A DNA stretch of 29,078 nucleotides from a virus (Duplodnaviria; Caudoviricetes). The stretch spans positions 1 to 29,078 of the IMG/VR virus record IMGVR_UViG_3300037419_000157; one strand, 5' to 3'. This document shows positions 4,097-13,489 of this stretch, piece after piece. The notes under the pieces were generated by a model. That model saw nothing but the letters and a program-made list of their open reading frames with translations. It made no database searches and was not told where the DNA came from. Each line of letters starts with the position of its first letter. Within the stretch, counting starts at the first letter, position 1. Both the position numbers and the translations under genes were made by a program.

Positions 4097-5758
4097 TTGA
4101 ACAGCCAATTCGTTAAGCATGGACCTTGCGAGGTATGCGGGTCCTCAGACGCCGTGGGGTGGTATTCAGACGGTCATGGAGTATGCTTCTCCTGCAACCG
4201 CTACTACCCCACCTATGATCCTAAAATAGAAGAGACAAGGTTATTGTCCGAAACACAACCACTTCAGAAAACAATCACTCCACTTACTAATGTCTTCCGA
4301 GCGCTGCCTAAGCGCGGTCTTCCAGAAGACGCAGTCCGTAAGTATGGAATTGATGTCTGTGTCGATCCAGATACAGACATCGCTCACCGCTATCCGTTCT
4401 TCCGTGACGGACAGCATGTCGCCAACCAAGTCCGAAAGAGAAGCCAGAAAGGTTTTTATTGGGAAGGAGACCCAAGAGGTGCAGAACTATTTGGCCAGCA
4501 TCTTTTTCCGAAGGGAGGACGGGCAATCACTGTCTGTGAGGGTGCCTTGGACGCCCCCTCCGCGTGGGTTCTTCTTGGTAGTCGTTATCCTGTCGTCTCT
4601 GTCATTTCTGCTGCCGGGGCATTCGAGCAATGCAAGGCACAGTACGAGTATCTCGACAGCTTTGAAGAAATAGTCCTTTGCTTCGATAACGACGAAGGGA
4701 AGAGGCGTCCGGACGGGACGGTTTATTATCCCGGTCAGGAAGCAGCTAAGAAAGTAGCGGAGTTATTCGCTCCCGGTAAGGCTCGTATCCTTACACTCCA
4801 AGAAGGGAAGGACCCGAATGAGTATCGGCAGAAGGGCATCGATTCGAAGATATTCGTCAACGAATGGTATCGGGCACCGAAATTCAAGCCAGACGGCCTT
4901 ATACCCGGCACGGACATGTGGGATCGAATTGTCAATCGGCCCTCACACTTCCAGACACCGTATCCGTTTTCCGGACTTAATAAGCTTACTTATGGAATTC
5001 GACTCTCTGAATTCGTTGTTATCAATGCACAAACAGGCGTCGGTAAGACTTCTCTTCTGAAGGAAATCGAGTATGCTATCCTCACTAATCCCGAAGTTTG
5101 TGAAAAGGGATACGGAGTTGGCTTTCTCCATCTGGAAGAGCTGGACTCTGACTTGGCCTTGGGTCTCATGTCAATTCATGCGAACAAGCGATTTGGTCTT
5201 CCCGACACTGAAGCAAGTAAAGAGGAACTACTCAAAGCTTACAATGACGTCGTCAACACGCCGCGTGTCATTATTTACGACCACTTCGGTTCAAACGAAA
5301 TCGACGCCATCGTGGCTAAGGTTCGTCACATGGCGGCTCTTGGATGTAAGTATATCGTTCTCGACCACTTGAGTATCGTCGTATCTGACCAATCCGGTGA
5401 CGAAAGGAAACAGCTTGATGAGATATCTACCAAGCTTAAAACCCTTTGTATGGAAGCCAACATCGCGCTTGTCGCTGTCATACATCAGAACCGACAGGGA
5501 CAAATTCGTGGCACTGCGGGTGTCGAACAGTTGGCGAATATTGTTCTACGCTTGGAGCGCGATCTCTGCGCCGCAGACGCGTGGCGTAGAAATGTCACTA
5601 AGGTATGGGTCGAGAAAAATAGGTTTTGTGGCCGAACGGGTCCTGCTTCGTGGTTGTTCTACGACGACATCACGGGCAGGATGCAAGAACTCGACGAAGT
5701 CGCGGTCACGAAGTATGAAGAAGGGTTGACGATCAATGACTCAGACATCCCATTTTAA
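4097..5758 (+). CDS. DNA primase-helicase (T7 gp4-like)
   Basis: Zn finger CEVC..CFSC. TOPRIM motifs VCEGALDA, CFDND and KDPNE. SF4 helicase motifs QTGVGKTS, IVLDHL, IRG and KNRF. TTG start after AAGGAG. Confidence 0.95.
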   Translation: MNSQFVKHGPCEVCGSSDAVGWYSDGHGVCFSCNRYYPTYDPKIEETRLLSETQPLQKTITPLTNVFRALPKRGLPEDAVRKYGIDVCVDPDTDIAHRYPFFRDGQHVANQVRKRSQKGFYWEGDPRGAELFGQHLFPKGGRAITVCEGALDAPSAWVLLGSRYPVVSVISAAGAFEQCKAQYEYLDSFEEIVLCFDNDEGKRRPDGTVYYPGQEAAKKVAELFAPGKARILTLQEGKDPNEYRQKGIDSKIFVNEWYRAPKFKPDGLIPGTDMWDRIVNRPSHFQTPYPFSGLNKLTYGIRLSEFVVINAQTGVGKTSLLKEIEYAILTNPEVCEKGYGVGFLHLEELDSDLALGLMSIHANKRFGLPDTEASKEELLKAYNDVVNTPRVIIYDHFGSNEIDAIVAKVRHMAALGCKYIVLDHLSIVVSDQSGDERKQLDEISTKLKTLCMEANIALVAVIHQNRQGQIRGTAGVEQLANIVLRLERDLCAADAWRRNVTKVWVEKNRFCGRTGPASWLFYDDITGRMQELDEVAVTKYEEGLTINDSDIPF

Positions 5759-5951: not shown

Positions 5952-6142
5952 TGAATATCCCTCTAGCTAAGGCGCTGGCAATTATCGACCAGCACAGAGG
6001 AGAAATCCTCAAAGAGAGAAAGCAGCATTTGAAGGGAACCGACGGATACACTTCTCTTAGTCGGAGACTTGACTTGCTCAACCGACTGAAGAAGGAGTTT
6101 TCCAATCTACCTGACACCGACCAAATCCCACTGGGCCTGTGA
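5951..6142 (+). CDS. Hypothetical helical protein
   Basis: TAATG coupling suggests a start at 5951 (the track gives 5939). Overlaps the polymerase 5' end. Confidence 0.55.
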   Translation: MNIPLAKALAIIDQHRGEILKERKQHLKGTDGYTSLSRRLDLLNRLKKEFSNLPDTDQIPLGL

Positions 6143-7988
6143 TATCGAAGCAGACAACCTGCTCGATAAGGCTACGAGGATATGGTGTGTCTGCGTAGAA
6201 AACGTCCTGACAGGAGAGAAACATGAGTTCGCGAATGCGAAGGACTTTAAAAATTGGTTGCCAAGTGGCTGCATTCTTGTCGGGCATAACTTCATTGCTT
6301 ATGATCTGGTTATGCTCAATCGCCATTGGAAGACCTCTATTGGTGTCGGCTCAGTGGTTGATACATTTGTTCTTAGTCAGCTTTACAATCCAAGTTATTC
6401 AGGCGGGCATTCTCTTGAAGCTTGGGGTGAGCGACTAGGTCATCCGAAAACAGAACACGAGGACTTCTCATGTCTTACTCGCGAAATGTTAGAATACTGC
6501 GCCAACGATACCTCGCTGACGGCAATCTTGTTTTGCCGCCTATCTCAGCGTATGCGACAGTATTCGTTTACGGAGCATGGCGCAGAGATAGAGCATCTTG
6601 CTTGGAACATCGTCCAGAACAAACAGAGGCGTAACGGTTTCCCGTTCGACTACAAGCGGGCACACGAACTCTACACGACACTCCGTGAGCGTGAGGAAAA
6701 ATTAAGGAAGGAAATTCATGAGTTATGGCCACCTAGACTCATCCCGGTTGGAGAGTATAAATCGGGTCTTAAGCGCGATGGAAGCCACAATGCTCAGTAT
6801 CTCCGACATAAGGAACAGTTCCCGAAACTCGAATGGCTGGACGACGGAAGATATCGGGCGTATGATTGGGTTGAGTTTAACCTTGGAAGTCCGAAGCAAA
6901 GAATTGAGAAACTTCTTGAGCTAGGATGGGAGCCAACTCAGTTCACTAAGCGGACACCACAAGGAGGCGGAGGCAATCCGAAGGTCGATGAAGACAGTCT
7001 TATCGCATTCGCAGAGAGTTCGGGTAAGGCAGAAATCGCTGCTCTCGCGAAATGGATCGTTATTAACTCACGAGCAAATATGGTTGCCACATGGATGGAT
7101 GCCTACAGACCCGACACTAAGGCAATACATGGTCGGCTCTTTATTGCGAGTACCCTCCGCTATCGGCATTCCCACCCTAATTCAGCTAACATCCCTGCGG
7201 TCAGAACAGAGAAAGACGAGAATGGCGAAGATCAAATCCTTCGCGGCGAAGACGGCGCGTGGACTTATGAATGTCGTGATCTGTGGACTTGTGGTGATCC
7301 TTCTCGTTGGTCTCTCGTGGGAATTGATGGAACTGGAATCCAGAATCGATGCCTTATTCACCATCTCATCTCGACTGTAGGTGAGGATGAAGTCCGTGAG
7401 TTCAAAGAATTAGCACTTCGTGGAGATATCCACAAGCATAACATCCGTGTCCTAGGACTTGCTAACAAAGCTGCGGCTAAGAAGTTCTACTACACGTTGA
7501 TGATGGGCGGACAGGGCAGGCGTCTGGCAGCAGACCAAGCCCAGTTCGGAACCAAGATGACGCCCGAAGAAGGGACTAGGCTCCGCGAGGAAATGATCGC
7601 GAGTATGCCCGGCTTCGGTAGTCTCATCGCGAGGCTGGAAGAACAGCTTCGGAAGACAGGACGCATCACGCTCTGTGATGGAACACCCATACTCGTCCCC
7701 TCCCCCCACATGGCTATCCCCTACCTTCTTCAAGGGGATGAAAGCCGACTGATGAAGAAGGCTATGATCCTTGTCGATCTGGAAATCCGGAAAGCCGGGT
7801 TGCAGAAAGACGTACTGAAGGTAGCCGATATCCATGATGAGTGGCAGTTTGTAGTAAGGAACGAAGTCGTTGAGCAATTCATTCGCCTATCTCTCCCTTG
7901 TTTCCCTCGTGCTGGTGAGAGTTTCGGCTACAAGATACTTATCGAGGGTGACGCAAAGGTAGGTAAGACATGGGCAGAAACCCATTAA
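6105..7988 (+). CDS. Family A DNA polymerase with 3'-5' exonuclease (T7 gp5-like, divergent active site)
   Basis: ExoI CDIEAD (about 6138-6155) lies in frame upstream of the track's 6258 start. ExoII GHNFIAYD, ExoIII YCAND, FNLGSPKQ, motif A GIDGTGIQNR, motif B AKKFYYTLMMG, motif C IHDE and C-terminal GKTWAETH. The start at ATC 6105 is inferred. Confidence 0.92.
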   Translation: MYLTPTKSHWACDIEADNLLDKATRIWCVCVENVLTGEKHEFANAKDFKNWLPSGCILVGHNFIAYDLVMLNRHWKTSIGVGSVVDTFVLSQLYNPSYSGGHSLEAWGERLGHPKTEHEDFSCLTREMLEYCANDTSLTAILFCRLSQRMRQYSFTEHGAEIEHLAWNIVQNKQRRNGFPFDYKRAHELYTTLREREEKLRKEIHELWPPRLIPVGEYKSGLKRDGSHNAQYLRHKEQFPKLEWLDDGRYRAYDWVEFNLGSPKQRIEKLLELGWEPTQFTKRTPQGGGGNPKVDEDSLIAFAESSGKAEIAALAKWIVINSRANMVATWMDAYRPDTKAIHGRLFIASTLRYRHSHPNSANIPAVRTEKDENGEDQILRGEDGAWTYECRDLWTCGDPSRWSLVGIDGTGIQNRCLIHHLISTVGEDEVREFKELALRGDIHKHNIRVLGLANKAAAKKFYYTLMMGGQGRRLAADQAQFGTKMTPEEGTRLREEMIASMPGFGSLIARLEEQLRKTGRITLCDGTPILVPSPHMAIPYLLQGDESRLMKKAMILVDLEIRKAGLQKDVLKVADIHDEWQFVVRNEVVEQFIRLSLPCFPRAGESFGYKILIEGDAKVGKTWAETH

Positions 7989-7995
7989 ATAGTAC

Positions 7996-8023
7996 TTGAC
8001 ATCCTGTTAATATATGGTATAAT
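7996..8023 (+). promoter_or_regulatory. Consensus sigma70 promoter with extended -10
   Basis: TTGACA (7996-8001), 16-nt spacer ending TGG, TATAAT (8018-8023), upstream of the SSB gene. Confidence 0.85.
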
Positions 8024-8056
8024 ACTTCTATACCTTGTAGGTATTGTTAGGAGAAT

Positions 8057-8635
8057 GTGTTGAATAAAGCAGTTGAATTTACTATCCGTGGTACCATCGA
8101 TTGGTGCAAACTTCTCGGAGAAGCCCGACCTTATACCGGCGACCCGAAGTTCAATAAGGGTCCGACTTGGTCGGTTGAAATCAACCCTAACGAGGAGTCG
8201 CGGAAGAAGCTAGCCGAGTACGGTCTTGACGAAAAGCTCAAGATGGACAAGGCTAAGAAGAAGGACGGGACACCTACTAAGAACCCCCGTTCGTACGACT
8301 ATCTACGTCTCACTATCCTTGAGAATCTTCCGAGCGGCAAGAAGATGAAGCAGCCGGAGGTTAAGGACGCCAGTGGCGCTCTATGGAACCAAGAGACAGA
8401 AATCGGTAACGGTTCCGTTGCAGACATCCTAGTTCGTTATGTCGATTACGGCACGACGAAGGGTCTGTACTTCAAGAAGATGCGTGTACTCAAACTTGTT
8501 CCATACGAGGGCGGCACGGACTTCGAGCCGCTGTCTGAAGACGACGAATTCTTCGCTAGCTCTGAGAATGATGTCGATAACGAGCCGGGTTCCGGCGAGT
8601 TGATGACCAACGGTCTAGACGACATTCCTGAGTAA
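8057..8635 (+). CDS. Single-stranded DNA-binding protein (T7 gp2.5-like)
   Basis: IGNGSVA...MRVLKLVPY OB-fold signature, acidic tail, and position after the polymerase. Start is GTG 8057 or TTG 8060. Confidence 0.8.
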   Translation: MLNKAVEFTIRGTIDWCKLLGEARPYTGDPKFNKGPTWSVEINPNEESRKKLAEYGLDEKLKMDKAKKKDGTPTKNPRSYDYLRLTILENLPSGKKMKQPEVKDASGALWNQETEIGNGSVADILVRYVDYGTTKGLYFKKMRVLKLVPYEGGTDFEPLSEDDEFFASSENDVDNEPGSGELMTNGLDDIPE

Positions 8636-10814: not shown

Positions 10815-11478
10815 GGCTTATGTATGGGGGCCATTCAAACAATACATCTCTGATCCCGCGATAATTGAAGACGGCGGCTTACTCTGCGTCGGATTGAAAT
10901 GGTTAGGCAAGCCGGGCGTGATGGTGTTCTCCGAGTGGGAGCACGGTCATGAAGAGATGATTAAGCTCACTTACGAGCAAATGGAGAAGGCCGACGTCAT
11001 CGTCGGATTTAACTCCGATAAGTTCGATCTTCCGAAGCTCCTAGGCGAAGGCGTCCTTCACGGTATCTCTCCTGTCGCTCCTACGACTTCAATCGATCTC
11101 TACAAAGCAGTCAAGAAGTTCGGATTTTTTAGAAGCAGCTTAGGTCACGTTGCTCCCTTCCTCCGCATTGGAAAGAAGATCGAGCATGAGGGAATGGCTC
11201 TGTGGGTAAAGGTAATCAATGGCGACGAATCCGCTCAGCGAAGAATGGCAAGATATTGTGGACAAGACGTCCGACTTACTGAGCGACTATATCTCAAAAT
11301 TCGACCATATATCCGAAATCACCCTCACTTGGGTAAGACCGGACATGACCAATGCCCCTCATGCGGAGGCTCGCATTCTCACAGTCGAGGAACAGTCAGA
11401 ACCCGTGTCTTCAAGAAACAGCGGCTTCAGTGTCAAGATTGTGGGCATTGGTATTTTGGAAAGCAGTCAAAAATCTAA
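10756..11478 (+). CDS. RNase H-fold/DnaQ-like 3'-5' exonuclease with C-terminal Zn ribbon
   Basis: LDIE, VGFNSDKFD and YCGQDV motifs, plus CPSC...CQDC. Confidence 0.85.
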   Translation: MVKLPDQNVLILDIEWKPTKAYVWGPFKQYISDPAIIEDGGLLCVGLKWLGKPGVMVFSEWEHGHEEMIKLTYEQMEKADVIVGFNSDKFDLPKLLGEGVLHGISPVAPTTSIDLYKAVKKFGFFRSSLGHVAPFLRIGKKIEHEGMALWVKVINGDESAQRRMARYCGQDVRLTERLYLKIRPYIRNHPHLGKTGHDQCPSCGGSHSHSRGTVRTRVFKKQRLQCQDCGHWYFGKQSKI

Positions 11479-11939
11479 TGGACGAGCAGGTTTTCACACC
11501 CCTACTGGACAAGTGGGACAGAAGGTGGATGAAAGCAGCCCACGAGACAGCGAGCTGGTCAAAGGACCCCTCGACGAAGGTAGGGTGCGTAATCGTCGAA
11601 CCCGAAAGCCAAAGAAGGACGGGTGAGGGATTCAATGGCTTTCCGCGTTTTATGTCTGATGACCCTGCTCTCTACGCTGATCGCGAGACTAAGTATGCAC
11701 GGACACTTCACGCTGAACTGAACGCAGTTTTATTCGCCAAGAAGACAGAAGGATGTACAGCTTATGTCACACACCCACCTTGCACAGCTTGCAGTCTTGT
11801 TCTTATTCAGTCTGGTATTAGTCGTGTCGTGGCACTACGACCAAGCAATGATCTCCTCACTAGGTGGGAAGATTCAATCAAAAAGGCCAAAGGCTTCTTC
11901 GACGAAGCCGAAGTAGAATATGAGTTAGTGGATGGATGA
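11478..11939 (+). CDS. dCMP deaminase
   Basis: SKDPSTKVGC, GFNGFP, HAELNA and PCTAC motifs. Start reassigned to the TAATG-coupled ATG at 11478. Confidence 0.92.
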   Translation: MDEQVFTPLLDKWDRRWMKAAHETASWSKDPSTKVGCVIVEPESQRRTGEGFNGFPRFMSDDPALYADRETKYARTLHAELNAVLFAKKTEGCTAYVTHPPCTACSLVLIQSGISRVVALRPSNDLLTRWEDSIKKAKGFFDEAEVEYELVDG

Positions 11940-12087
11940 ACGTCTTAAAAGAGTAGCTGACTTCTTTGAAGGGTGGGAGCTTATCCAGCTACTGGATATC
12001 CCTGCCAATGATATCCTTGAGGCGTTTTGTGACGAGATTGAGGACAAGCTAGAAGCGCTAGAAGAGATTATGGAGTTTCATGACTAA
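11932..12087 (+). CDS. 51-aa acidic hypothetical protein (not in the ORF track)
   Basis: MDERLKRVADFFEGWELIQLLDIPANDILEAFCDEIEDKLEALEEIMEFHD exactly fills the gap and overlaps both neighbours. Confidence 0.7.
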   Translation: MDERLKRVADFFEGWELIQLLDIPANDILEAFCDEIEDKLEALEEIMEFHD

Positions 12088-12619
12088 GTGTCTGTATCTA
12101 ATAGGCTCGCTTAGAAACGAGCGAATACCTGAACTCGGTAAGAAAATAAGAAAGGATAACCCCGATTTTGAAGTTTTCGATGACTGGTATTCTGCGGGAC
12201 CTGAAGCAGACGATTGTTGGAAAGCCCATCAACAATCTAAGGGTCTCAATTACCGAGAAGCTCTTAACGGCTATGCGGCGAAGAACGTCTTTGACTTTGA
12301 CAAACGCAACTTGGACCGCAGTTCTCATGCTCTCCTTGTCCTCCCTGCTGGCCGTAGCGGGCACATGGAAATCATGTATGCTTGCTATGGTGTTGGGGCT
12401 AGGACTGCTATTCTTCTAGACGAGACTGACGACCGTTGGGACGTCATGTATCAATTCATCCCTTCTATTCTTCACTCAGAGAAAGAGATCAATAATTGGC
12501 TGACATCGATGCAACCCTCGAAGAAAGGGGAACGCGCTATGGTTCGTTCAAAGAGCATGCAAAGATCAGTCAGTCCATCGTTAGGGCTATGGCCGATTCT
12601 TCCAACTGGTCTAGACTAG
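12080..12619 (+). CDS. Nucleoside 2-deoxyribosyltransferase-like (N-glycosidase fold) protein
   Basis: LYLIGS, F.FD...LD.S and LPAGRSGHME..YA motifs, with the catalytic-position Glu present. Confidence 0.7.
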   Translation: MTKCLYLIGSLRNERIPELGKKIRKDNPDFEVFDDWYSAGPEADDCWKAHQQSKGLNYREALNGYAAKNVFDFDKRNLDRSSHALLVLPAGRSGHMEIMYACYGVGARTAILLDETDDRWDVMYQFIPSILHSEKEINNWLTSMQPSKKGERAMVRSKSMQRSVSPSLGLWPILPTGLD

Positions 12620-12801
12620 ACGATGACATGCGGGAGGCATTTCATATCATCGCCAATAAGATGGGACGAATACTTAATGGCGACCCTTGGTATCACGACA
12701 GTTGGCACGATATCGTGGGCTATGCAAAGCTTGTAGCCGACAGACTAGAACAAGAAGCCGGAGGAACTGGCCAAAATGATCGACACCGAGGTGATGGCTG
12801 A
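12496..12801 (+). CDS. DUF6378-like phage protein (putative nucleotide hydrolase-related)
   Basis: LEERG.RYG.F...K.GRILNGDP...DSWHDIVGYA pattern. TTG start. Confidence 0.7.
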   Translation: MADIDATLEERGTRYGSFKEHAKISQSIVRAMADSSNWSRLDDDMREAFHIIANKMGRILNGDPWYHDSWHDIVGYAKLVADRLEQEAGGTGQNDRHRGDG

Positions 12802-13069
12802 GGGGTGGGAAGATGATATCGACCTCCCCGAAGAGGCCGAAGACGATATCTTCACTGAGATATACGTCGAGACTGCGACTTCGCTGATTTACGAAGTCCA
12901 TATGTTCGATACCTTCTGTCTTGTCCGCCCTGCTTCTCCTAATATGTATGCGGGTGTCAGAAAGCTATCGCATCTAGCGTTCTCGAAGGAGTTCCATGAG
13001 TTCCTAGGAGACCCCGAAGAAGTCAGGAATTATCTCAGAAGCGCGAATATCGATTTCGTGGTTGAGTGA
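12776..13069 (+). CDS. Acidic hypothetical protein
   Basis: GGAGG RBS upstream. Fits the operon tiling. Confidence 0.65.
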   Translation: MIDTEVMAEGWEDDIDLPEEAEDDIFTEIYVETATSLIYEVHMFDTFCLVRPASPNMYAGVRKLSHLAFSKEFHEFLGDPEEVRNYLRSANIDFVVE

Positions 13070-13224
13070 TGAATATTCATTATTACGACGACAAGACTCG
13101 AAGGAAGATCAGAAGGTTAGAGAAAGAGAGGAAAGATGGAGACAAGAGAACAGATCGTAAGCAAGCTTATGGCAGAAAGCGAAAAGCTTCAGTACGACAA
13201 AGACGATCCTCAGAGGATTTATGA
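13069..13224 (+). CDS. 51-aa highly basic hypothetical protein (not in the ORF track)
   Basis: TGATG coupling. Translates MNIHYYDDKTRRKIRRLEKERKDGDKRTDRKQAYGRKRKASVRQRRSSEDL and overlaps the next gene by 89 nt. Confidence 0.35.
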   Translation: MNIHYYDDKTRRKIRRLEKERKDGDKRTDRKQAYGRKRKASVRQRRSSEDL

Positions 13225-13489
13225 CGCTTCAGAGAAAGCCACTCAATCTTTCGTTTCCCTCCTAGGGCTGATAGCTGAATTCAGGGATGAAATCCAGAAG
13301 CCTGTCGATGAAGACTCGGCTGACACCATGAAGCAGATTAGGCAAGACCTAGTCACGATGTATGCCGATACCCTAGTCAATCTACACAAGATAGGAGCGG
13401 TGTTCAGGATTTCCGGAGAGGCATTTGATCGGACAGTAGAATACCTAAGCGGGCCAGAAGAAGCACCGCTAGTTATGGCTGGACTATGA
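13136..13489 (+). CDS. Helical protein, weak MazG/PRA-PH-like resemblance
   Basis: LIAEF...LVTMYAD.LV.L...GAVF....EAFDR spacing recalls all-alpha NTP pyrophosphatases. Last gene of the + arm. Confidence 0.5.
   Translation: METREQIVSKLMAESEKLQYDKDDPQRIYDASEKATQSFVSLLGLIAEFRDEIQKPVDEDSADTMKQIRQDLVTMYADTLVNLHKIGAVFRISGEAFDRTVEYLSGPEEAPLVMAGL

Follow-up and report, generated by a model that had tools for sequence, protein, structure and literature searches.

Family A DNA polymerases have been described as sharing a universally conserved Glu-Tyr pair (PMC3715850, available in part), and the locus studied here raises the question of how to understand a phage polymerase in which both residues are replaced. 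Work on engineering sugar selectivity usually targets this pair. The locus lies in a stretch of 29,078 nucleotides (the window), which is a 29-kb fragment of a tailed-phage genome estimated to be about 59% complete, the genomes of its relatives measuring 46-53 kb. Its sequence is present in public soil and rhizosphere metagenome runs; no RNA datasets are among the public runs listed for the window, which has no bearing on expression. Genes of the amidoligase and ATP-grasp kinds are found in the left arm, together with a T7-like primase-helicase gene (4097..5758, + strand; phrog_239, DnaB_C and Toprim), the polymerase gene, an SSB-like gene, nuclease genes, a dCMP deaminase gene and a nucleoside-deoxyribosyltransferase-like gene; the lysis and virion genes are in the right arm, on the opposite strand. 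The SSB-like gene (8057..8635, + strand) specifies a putative gp2.5-like single-stranded DNA-binding protein with a weak match to phrog_112 (E 7e-4), and its cluster is represented in 152 of 166 loci. A perfect sigma-70 consensus (12/12, extended -10) is located at 7996-8023, just 3' of the polymerase stop and upstream of the SSB-like gene. The four GTDB matches that might have pointed to a host were rejected, since these MAG contigs look like binned phage and therefore give no host.

The polymerase gene (6105..7988, + strand; PF00476, phrog_17) encodes a predicted T7-like family A DNA polymerase of 627 aa with 3'-5' exonuclease and polymerase parts, the match to PF00476 scoring 51.4 bits against a cut-off of 34.3. 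Translation probably starts at an ATC codon that is 51 codons 5' of the first standard start codon, and a Shine-Dalgarno-like AAGGAG followed by this apparent start is found at 6092-6107. At the same place ATC is likewise found in the nearest complete relative (L002), and TTG, GTG, CTG or ATG in further relatives; gene callers cut the exonuclease short, as in the 576-aa protein P0001. Such weak starts may limit expression of the polymerase. The predicted model shows a confident T7-type fold (pLDDT 91.7), with T7 gp5 as the best solved match by sequence as well as by fold (TM 0.74-0.76, Foldseek E 5e-35), and a viral fold search with the polymerase returned nothing further. Among cultured phages none has a polymerase close to that of the window, the best match being 31%. 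Exo I (D13, E15), Exo II (D67) and Exo III (D135), encoded at 6141..6509 (+ strand), are kept in every row covering them, and Y463, the Tyr at position B3, is present in 118 of 119 homologues. T7-like PolA enzymes form cluster 5 (cd08643) of Czernecki et al. 2023 (PMC10201439, available in part). Judged by predicted fold, B3 Tyr and exonuclease, the window enzyme is a T7-like PolA, its likeness to cluster 5 following from the T7-like character of its nearest solved and cultured relatives.

The alignment to T7 gp5 is gap-free across motifs A, B and 6, and relates D408 to D475, Q413 to E480, K455 to R518, K459 to K522, Y463 to Y526, M467 to Y530, P539 to N611, Q543 to Q615, L351 to G428, R352 to R429 and E546 to G618. 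T7 E480 and Y526 correspond to Pol I E710 and F762, respectively (bioRxiv 10.64898/2026.05.20.726624, available in part). A preliminary description of this DNA had read motifs A, B, 6 and 2 by eye, and all of its readings match within one open frame, 6105-7988. The remaining Pol I numbers, such as R754 and Y766, are conventional ones or those of that description. Fixation was counted in 119 homologues with 62-83% identity to the window enzyme. In all of these, Gln replaces the steric-gate Glu of motif A (Q413, 7341..7343; T7 E480, Pol I E710), Met replaces the Tyr of motif B (M467, 7503..7505; T7 Y530) and Lys replaces the Arg of motif B (K455, 7467..7469; T7 R518), and in 118 of them Pro replaces the Asn of motif 6 (P539, 7719..7721; T7 N611), all positions being on the + strand. 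The four substitutions originally proposed by eye, E>Q, R>K, Y>M and N>P, were thereby confirmed, and they are neither an error nor peculiar to this one sequence. The catalytic residues are intact, as had been noted for the Asps and the motif B Lys: D408 of motif A (7326..7328, + strand), D578 and E579 of motif C (7836..7841, + strand), K459, H443 and Q543 are each present in 119/119 homologues. In the TGR motif, which here reads L351-R352 (7155..7160, + strand), the Arg is kept, and the position of the Gly (L351 in 116/119) is variable family-wide, also in enzymes with Glu at the gate. The enzyme thus has the Asp residues of motifs A and C, the motif B Lys, the TGR Arg and the motif 6 Gln of family A, but Gln and Met in place of two residues that are described as universal, the Glu of motif A and the Tyr of motif B. 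This rule of universality has exceptions, because many cultured members also lack the two residues.

The strict partner of Q413 turned out to be E546 (7740..7742, + strand; 119/119), a new Glu in motif 6 that is located 3 residues past Q543 at the position of T7 G618 and for which the aligned rows contain no exception. Of 328 rows, some of them near-copies or from loci that had been selected on motif A, 326 cover both sites, and these were either Gln/Glu at 413/546 (219 rows, Q/E) or Glu/Gly (107 rows, E/G). To avoid selecting on the motif, we used a polymerase of the Glu type, a sister of the window enzyme, as the query, and its 120 best relatives were divided into 17 Q/E and 103 E/G. Of 77 loci retrieved with patterns that avoid motifs A and 6, the 75 that have both sites comprised 9 Q/E and 66 E/G, loci found with a Gln-containing pattern being left out of the unbiased counts. 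The best 150 representatives at 50% identity, 142 of which were alignable, comprised 83 Q/E, 3 H/E and 56 E/G, so that all 86 representatives without the motif A Glu have E546 and all 56 that keep it have Gly; the pattern was unchanged with a stricter filter (139 rows). In the polymerases compared, a motif A Gln is thus always paired with the new motif 6 Glu. The rows P0353, P0377 and P0343 have His at the gate position, Asn in motif B and the motif 6 Glu.

Of 378 columns scanned, only column 546 separates the Gln and Glu types fully, the scores for columns 467 and 539 being 0.98 and 0.88. The covariation originally proposed was that between E710 and Y766. This held in so far as loss of the Tyr is common and nearly coupled to the swap, but not as a strict rule: DSS3_VP1, which is of the Gln type, retains the motif B Tyr, and 6 of the 103 Glu-type sisters have Phe instead. 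Gln-type enzymes other than that of the window have Leu, Phe, Met or Tyr at position 467, and the motif 6 Asn is present in 56/56 Glu-type representatives and variable in the Gln type. The preliminary description had further treated the loss of R754 and of the TGR sequence as coordinated with that of the gate; these are separate events, given that position 455 is divided into 138 Lys and 65 Arg and that the TGR Gly varies in Glu-type enzymes. In a sister sequence, P0203, Gln, Leu and Glu occur together with the same Arg-to-Lys change in motif B and an adjacent Lys, apparently a parallel change. Five relatives (P0105, P0114, L178, L180 and L188) are longer by 200-250 residues or have a match that is interrupted, which may reflect inteins or introns.

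Trees built without the motif columns, by quick searches under a simpler model, indicated that the gate state changed 9 times over 158 rows, 7 of these changes being forced by well-supported branches, and in tree contrasts all 7 independent pairs agreed with Q/E versus E/G (p=0.0156). A quick tree of 42 rows under a mixture model gave 6 changes, 3 of them forced. In AU tests, which used the same simpler model and a quick search on a group named after the first tree had been seen, a single clade of all Gln forms was rejected (p-AU 0.00086), the p-AU for the main clade with one sister group being 0.0136. The counts of switches are compatible with either direction, gain or loss. In the 203 main-clade rows covering the sites, position 413 is always Gln and position 546 always Glu, position 455 being Lys in 138 and Arg in 65; the more distant clade members keep the motif B Arg and have Leu for Met467 and Gly or Ala for Pro539. 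Since 413 and 546 are fixed where 455 varies and the distant members differ, the Arg-to-Lys change, Met and Pro are later layers. The Arg-to-Lys change arose later within one subclade, and the window enzyme is the most derived form among those compared.

The alteration of several normally invariant residues could also mean that the polymerase is decayed or inactive, or that the sequence is an artefact. We regard this as practically negligible: the frame is open, the catalytic residues are invariant, each of 5/5 relatives has one PolA match per genome, and a contig from a public soil run, possibly the window's own source, is identical to positions 6941-8100 with zero differences. Between the window and L002, dN/dS for the polymerase is 0.134/0.83, or approximately 0.16. 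As the changes are clade-wide and independently recurrent and this ratio is low, the gene is not decaying but under purifying selection, in keeping with the original view that the changes are compensatory.

What the swap does to the pocket can be considered in the light of solved enzymes, in which the gate Glu forms bonds with the Tyr of motif B, the Gln of motif 6 and the Arg of the TGR motif (PMC6158600, available in part), the four residues forming an electrostatic cluster (review PMC10520511, available in part). We consider it probable that the swap represents a compensated redesign, in which the new Glu replaces the lost negative charge and the enzyme still uses dNTPs in a rebuilt pocket. 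It is likely to be a second working design of the pocket, because the change always comes with the new Glu, including in long-cultured phages such as SIO1. The Gln, which has the same size as Glu, would still fill the space below the 2' carbon of the sugar. E546 is on a long helix, 534-563 in the predicted secondary structure, and on the same helix face as Q543 it could restore the acidic partner of the Arg352-Gln543 network; helix spacing and covariation suggest that residues 413 and 546 are near each other. Once position 413 has no carboxylate, the hydroxyl of the motif B Tyr and the Asn of motif 6 would be released, and both residues could drift, the Tyr to Phe, Leu or Met and the Asn to Ser, Ala, Gly or Pro. 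The R455K change would have followed later, as a separate step in one subclade.

Published mutants of Klenow provide a measure of what the gate Gln does by itself. Klenow E710Q is a mutator with poor closure on the correct dTTP (K2 0.52 versus 6.1), and its closure on rUTP is no better than that of the wild type (K2 0.056 versus 0.083; PMC3715850, available in part). These data point to poor handling of the correct dNTP and not to better handling of rNTPs, and the closure defect is of a kind that a nearby carboxylate could repair. They also bear on the unlikely alternative that the Gln-type pocket is functional but looser, with more errors or ribonucleotide insertion that is tolerated through proofreading or favoured when dNTPs are scarce. 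For such looseness speak the mutator phenotypes of both E710Q and Y766A (PMC3715850), the lowered fidelity of N845A (review PMC10520511; both sources available in part), the stacking of five changes in the window enzyme and the lack of a ribonucleotide reductase in its subclade. However, the mutator mutants do not have the compensating Glu, E710Q shows no preference for rUTP, most Gln-type genomes keep the reductase, and SIO1-like isolates obtained twelve years apart are reported to be more than 96% identical, with no hint of hypermutation (PMC6775973, available in part). The compensated redesign leads to the prediction that the known E-to-Q mutator should be rescued when the motif 6 Gly is replaced by Glu, and the cultured carriers SIO1, ICBM1, CVT22 and DSS3_VP1 make this prediction testable.

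The preliminary description had suggested that the polymerase might be adapted to a modified nucleotide pool. For the swap itself this was not supported, as the swap occurs together with ThyX and in phages that were routinely sequenced or restriction-mapped, and no gene family follows it. Indeed, ORF clustering over 166 loci revealed no gene families confined to Gln-type genomes, and the Gln-type L166 and the Glu-type L123 and L129 have most of their gene order in common, with ThyX and reductase. ThyX is present in SIO1, ICBM1, CRP-4, CRP-9, two Gln-type sister genomes and the main-clade locus L080. Counted by group, it is present in 4/4 cobavirus-type records, 2/2 Gln-type sisters and 8/9 Glu-type genomes; it was not found in 5 further Gln-type cultured phages, 10 complete main-clade genomes lack both ThyA and ThyX, and ThyA was found in 0/13 records. 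ICBM1 and ICBM2, two strictly lytic phages with genes for ThyX and reductase, were sequenced from NexteraXT libraries (PMC6775973, available in part), and CVT22 DNA was restriction-mapped and directly sequenced (PMC4505115). The genomes of SIO1, ICBM1 and CVT22 are therefore likely to consist of ordinary DNA. In DSS3_VP1, dU replaces all T according to LC-MS, and Nextera failed (PMC8323127, available in part). The swap thus works in a phage with dU DNA and, as we infer, also in phages with thymine DNA, and because it occurs in likely ordinary-DNA phages as well as in this dU phage, it is no marker of a modified pool. It can be explained without modified nucleotides, and a gate Gln alone flags neither modified DNA nor a dead enzyme.

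That the swap itself arose to accommodate a modified base, 2-aminoadenine for instance, is very improbable. DpoZ does lose the motif B Tyr (to Phe), the DpoZ of phiVC8 has a motif 6 Gly (literature available in part), and PF18909 and HD-type hydrolases occur in some relatives of the window. PurZ, however, was detected in 0/20 records, of which 10 are complete (control 14/14; the window itself being about 59% complete), PF18909 and the HD-type hydrolases are found in Glu-type genomes too, and CVT22 DNA could be cut by the restriction enzymes used for mapping (PMC4505115). No modification enzymes were found in 40 of the 68 listed ORFs of three more complete genomes or in 74 selected ORFs. Avoidance of palindromes was rejected as a test for modified DNA, since six-base palindromes are depleted alike in Gln-type genomes (ratios 0.57-0.83), Glu-type loci (0.65-0.90) and the dU phage (0.63). 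Not a single GTAC occurs in G001 or G006, each of about 50 kb, whereas the window does contain it, which suggests host-specific restriction avoidance in these two genomes. One replication arm is combined with two virion modules (G001 and G004 versus G002 and G003), one having a P22-like portal and coat and the other being a set in common with the Glu-type L025. Positions 1-2615 of the window and 1-5504 of L002 carry a cluster for an amidotransferase, a COOH-NH2 ligase, an amidoligase and an ATP-grasp protein of the phiEco32/CVT22 kind, and this kind of cluster is common to Gln- and Glu-type genomes.

The subclade with Lys455 differs in gene content from its relatives. When only loci with at least 9.5 kb downstream were counted, Lys455 loci had a reductase in 0/11, the hydrolase-like gene in 11/11 and the dCMP deaminase in 10/11 cases, whereas Arg455 main-clade loci had the reductase in 29/29 and the other two genes in 0/29. 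The reductase that is missing in the subclade is of class II in its relatives, and two complete Lys455 genomes are devoid of reductase, ThyA and ThyX. In the window, the dCMP deaminase gene (11352..11939, + strand; PF00383, phrog_174, alignment) probably has its true start inside the ORF, and the next gene (12080..12619, + strand; phrog_12607, Atlas features 0.98 and 0.95) encodes a protein resembling a nucleoside deoxyribosyltransferase or dNMP N-hydrolase. An acidic 97-aa protein (12776..13069, + strand) is confined to the Lys455 subclade according to ORF clustering and locus comparison; it was considered as a uracil-glycosylase inhibitor and rejected, with no usable Atlas match and a model pLDDT of 0.51. 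An eroded relative of a PRA-PH/MazG-like protein is encoded at 13136-13489, the acidic motifs of which are kept in L096 and Leu467 members and lost in Met467 members, and a small ORF at 8651-9049 matches phrog_2831 (unknown function) and is found in 3 loci of the subclade. As the subclade represents one evolutionary event, no causal link is shown between K455 and this gene set.

This gene content raises the alternative that in the window subclade the genome is replicated with uracil or some other substitute for thymine, the dCMP deaminase supplying dUMP, the hydrolase-like protein removing dTMP, and K455, M467 and P539 accompanying the altered pool. The reversed distribution of the three genes between Lys455 and Arg455 loci and the two complete genomes without reductase, ThyA and ThyX are in line with this idea, as is DSS3_VP1, a dU phage that has a Gln-type PolA and a similar deaminase (E of approximately 1e-36) and no ThyX. 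The combination known from dU phages, a cytidine-nucleotide deaminase without a thymidylate synthase, was found, the absence being that from the complete relatives G001 and G006; the polymerase locus of G006 has no deaminase. As to removal of dTTP or dTMP, DSS3_VP1_050, the HD phosphatase of the dU phage, is unmatched in the loci, and a gene whose product resembles a dNMP hydrolase is present. Against the idea it also counts that the association stems from a single event and is unreplicated, and that a uracil-glycosylase inhibitor was not identified. Moreover, dCMP deaminase also feeds host thymidylate synthesis, and family A enzymes accept dUTP without such changes. Finally, the subclade is plentiful in routine metagenomes, the library methods of which are not on record, and dU DNA failed in Nextera (PMC8323127, available in part). 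We therefore regard replication with such a replacement as rather unlikely. It is equally doubtful that the soil subclade, as the one furthest along the path of the relocated Glu, dropped the reductase and gained the deaminase and a dNMP hydrolase on its way to a uracil or other thymine-replacement genome; if true, an abundant group of podophages with non-canonical DNA would have been overlooked.

Taken together, the swap is a genuine and widespread variant of the insertion pocket of PolA that has apparently not been reported before: the Glu-Tyr pair has been replaced in 86 of the nearest 142 representatives that could be aligned, through repeated independent switches and with one strict partner. 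We found no description of it in the literature covered, which excluded most subscription papers, and the figure logos or supplements of PMC10201439 may show it; the available sections of the papers on cobavirus and Zobellviridae carriers (PMC6775973, PMC4505115) and of PMC13697223 and PMC8528129 do not mention such a change. Among known enzymes, Klenow E710Q, Y766A and Y766F (PMC3715850, available in part) are altered at the same positions, but as single changes without a compensating Glu, E710Q being a slow mutator. The DpoZ enzymes of the phiVC8-like and Wayne-like groups resemble the window enzyme in having lost the motif B Tyr hydroxyl, and in phiVC8 also in a changed motif 6, but they have Phe at the Tyr site and are accompanied by PurZ, and no change of the steric gate is described for them in the available parts of PMC8599892 and PMC10201439. 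As PurZ is missing here and the DpoZ changes differ, the window enzyme is not a DpoZ. With T7 gp5 it has in common the fold, the exonuclease and polymerase layout, the B3 Tyr and the catalytic Asp, Lys, His, Arg and Gln, and primase-helicase and SSB-like genes are neighbours of the polymerase gene as in T7; it differs in E480Q with G618E, Y530M, N611P and R518K at an identity of about 25%, and no phage RNA polymerase, a feature of T7, was found among the ORFs that were scanned. Motif A bears some resemblance to that of single-subunit RNA polymerases, but a relation to these was rejected, since intermediates link it stepwise to the motif of T7 DNA polymerase.

The swap has parallels among cultured phages. 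Motifs were read from 19 cultured phage polymerases, taken from the top matches and not at random, and 13 have Gln with the motif 6 Glu, 6 having Glu with Gly (Slicky01, Aeromonas 1233, HTVC103P, HTVC115P, jiawei and CHOED). One of the 13, DSS3_VP1 (Naomviridae), is like the window in its motif A Gln, motif 6 Glu, dCMP deaminase and lack of ThyX, but it is a siphovirus of 75 kb with a reductase and an HD phosphatase, and its polymerase keeps the motif B Tyr and the motif 6 Asn and has Phe at B3. CVT22 resembles the window phage in that its two arms are convergent and in its genes of the amidoligase, ATP-grasp and amidotransferase kinds, the likeness of the window to Zobellviridae being one to the gene order and gene content of CVT22 only. 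Like the window enzyme, the PolA enzymes of the cobavirus/Zobellviridae phages SIO1, ICBM1, ICBM2, CRP-4, CRP-5, CVT22 and Vibrio 1.208.B, and likewise those of CRP-7, CRP-9, CRP-13, Kolga and VPMCC6, combine the motif A Gln with the motif 6 Glu and have no motif B Tyr; they differ from it in their identity of about 30%, in keeping the motif B Arg in the alignment, and in having Leu or Phe where the window enzyme has Met.
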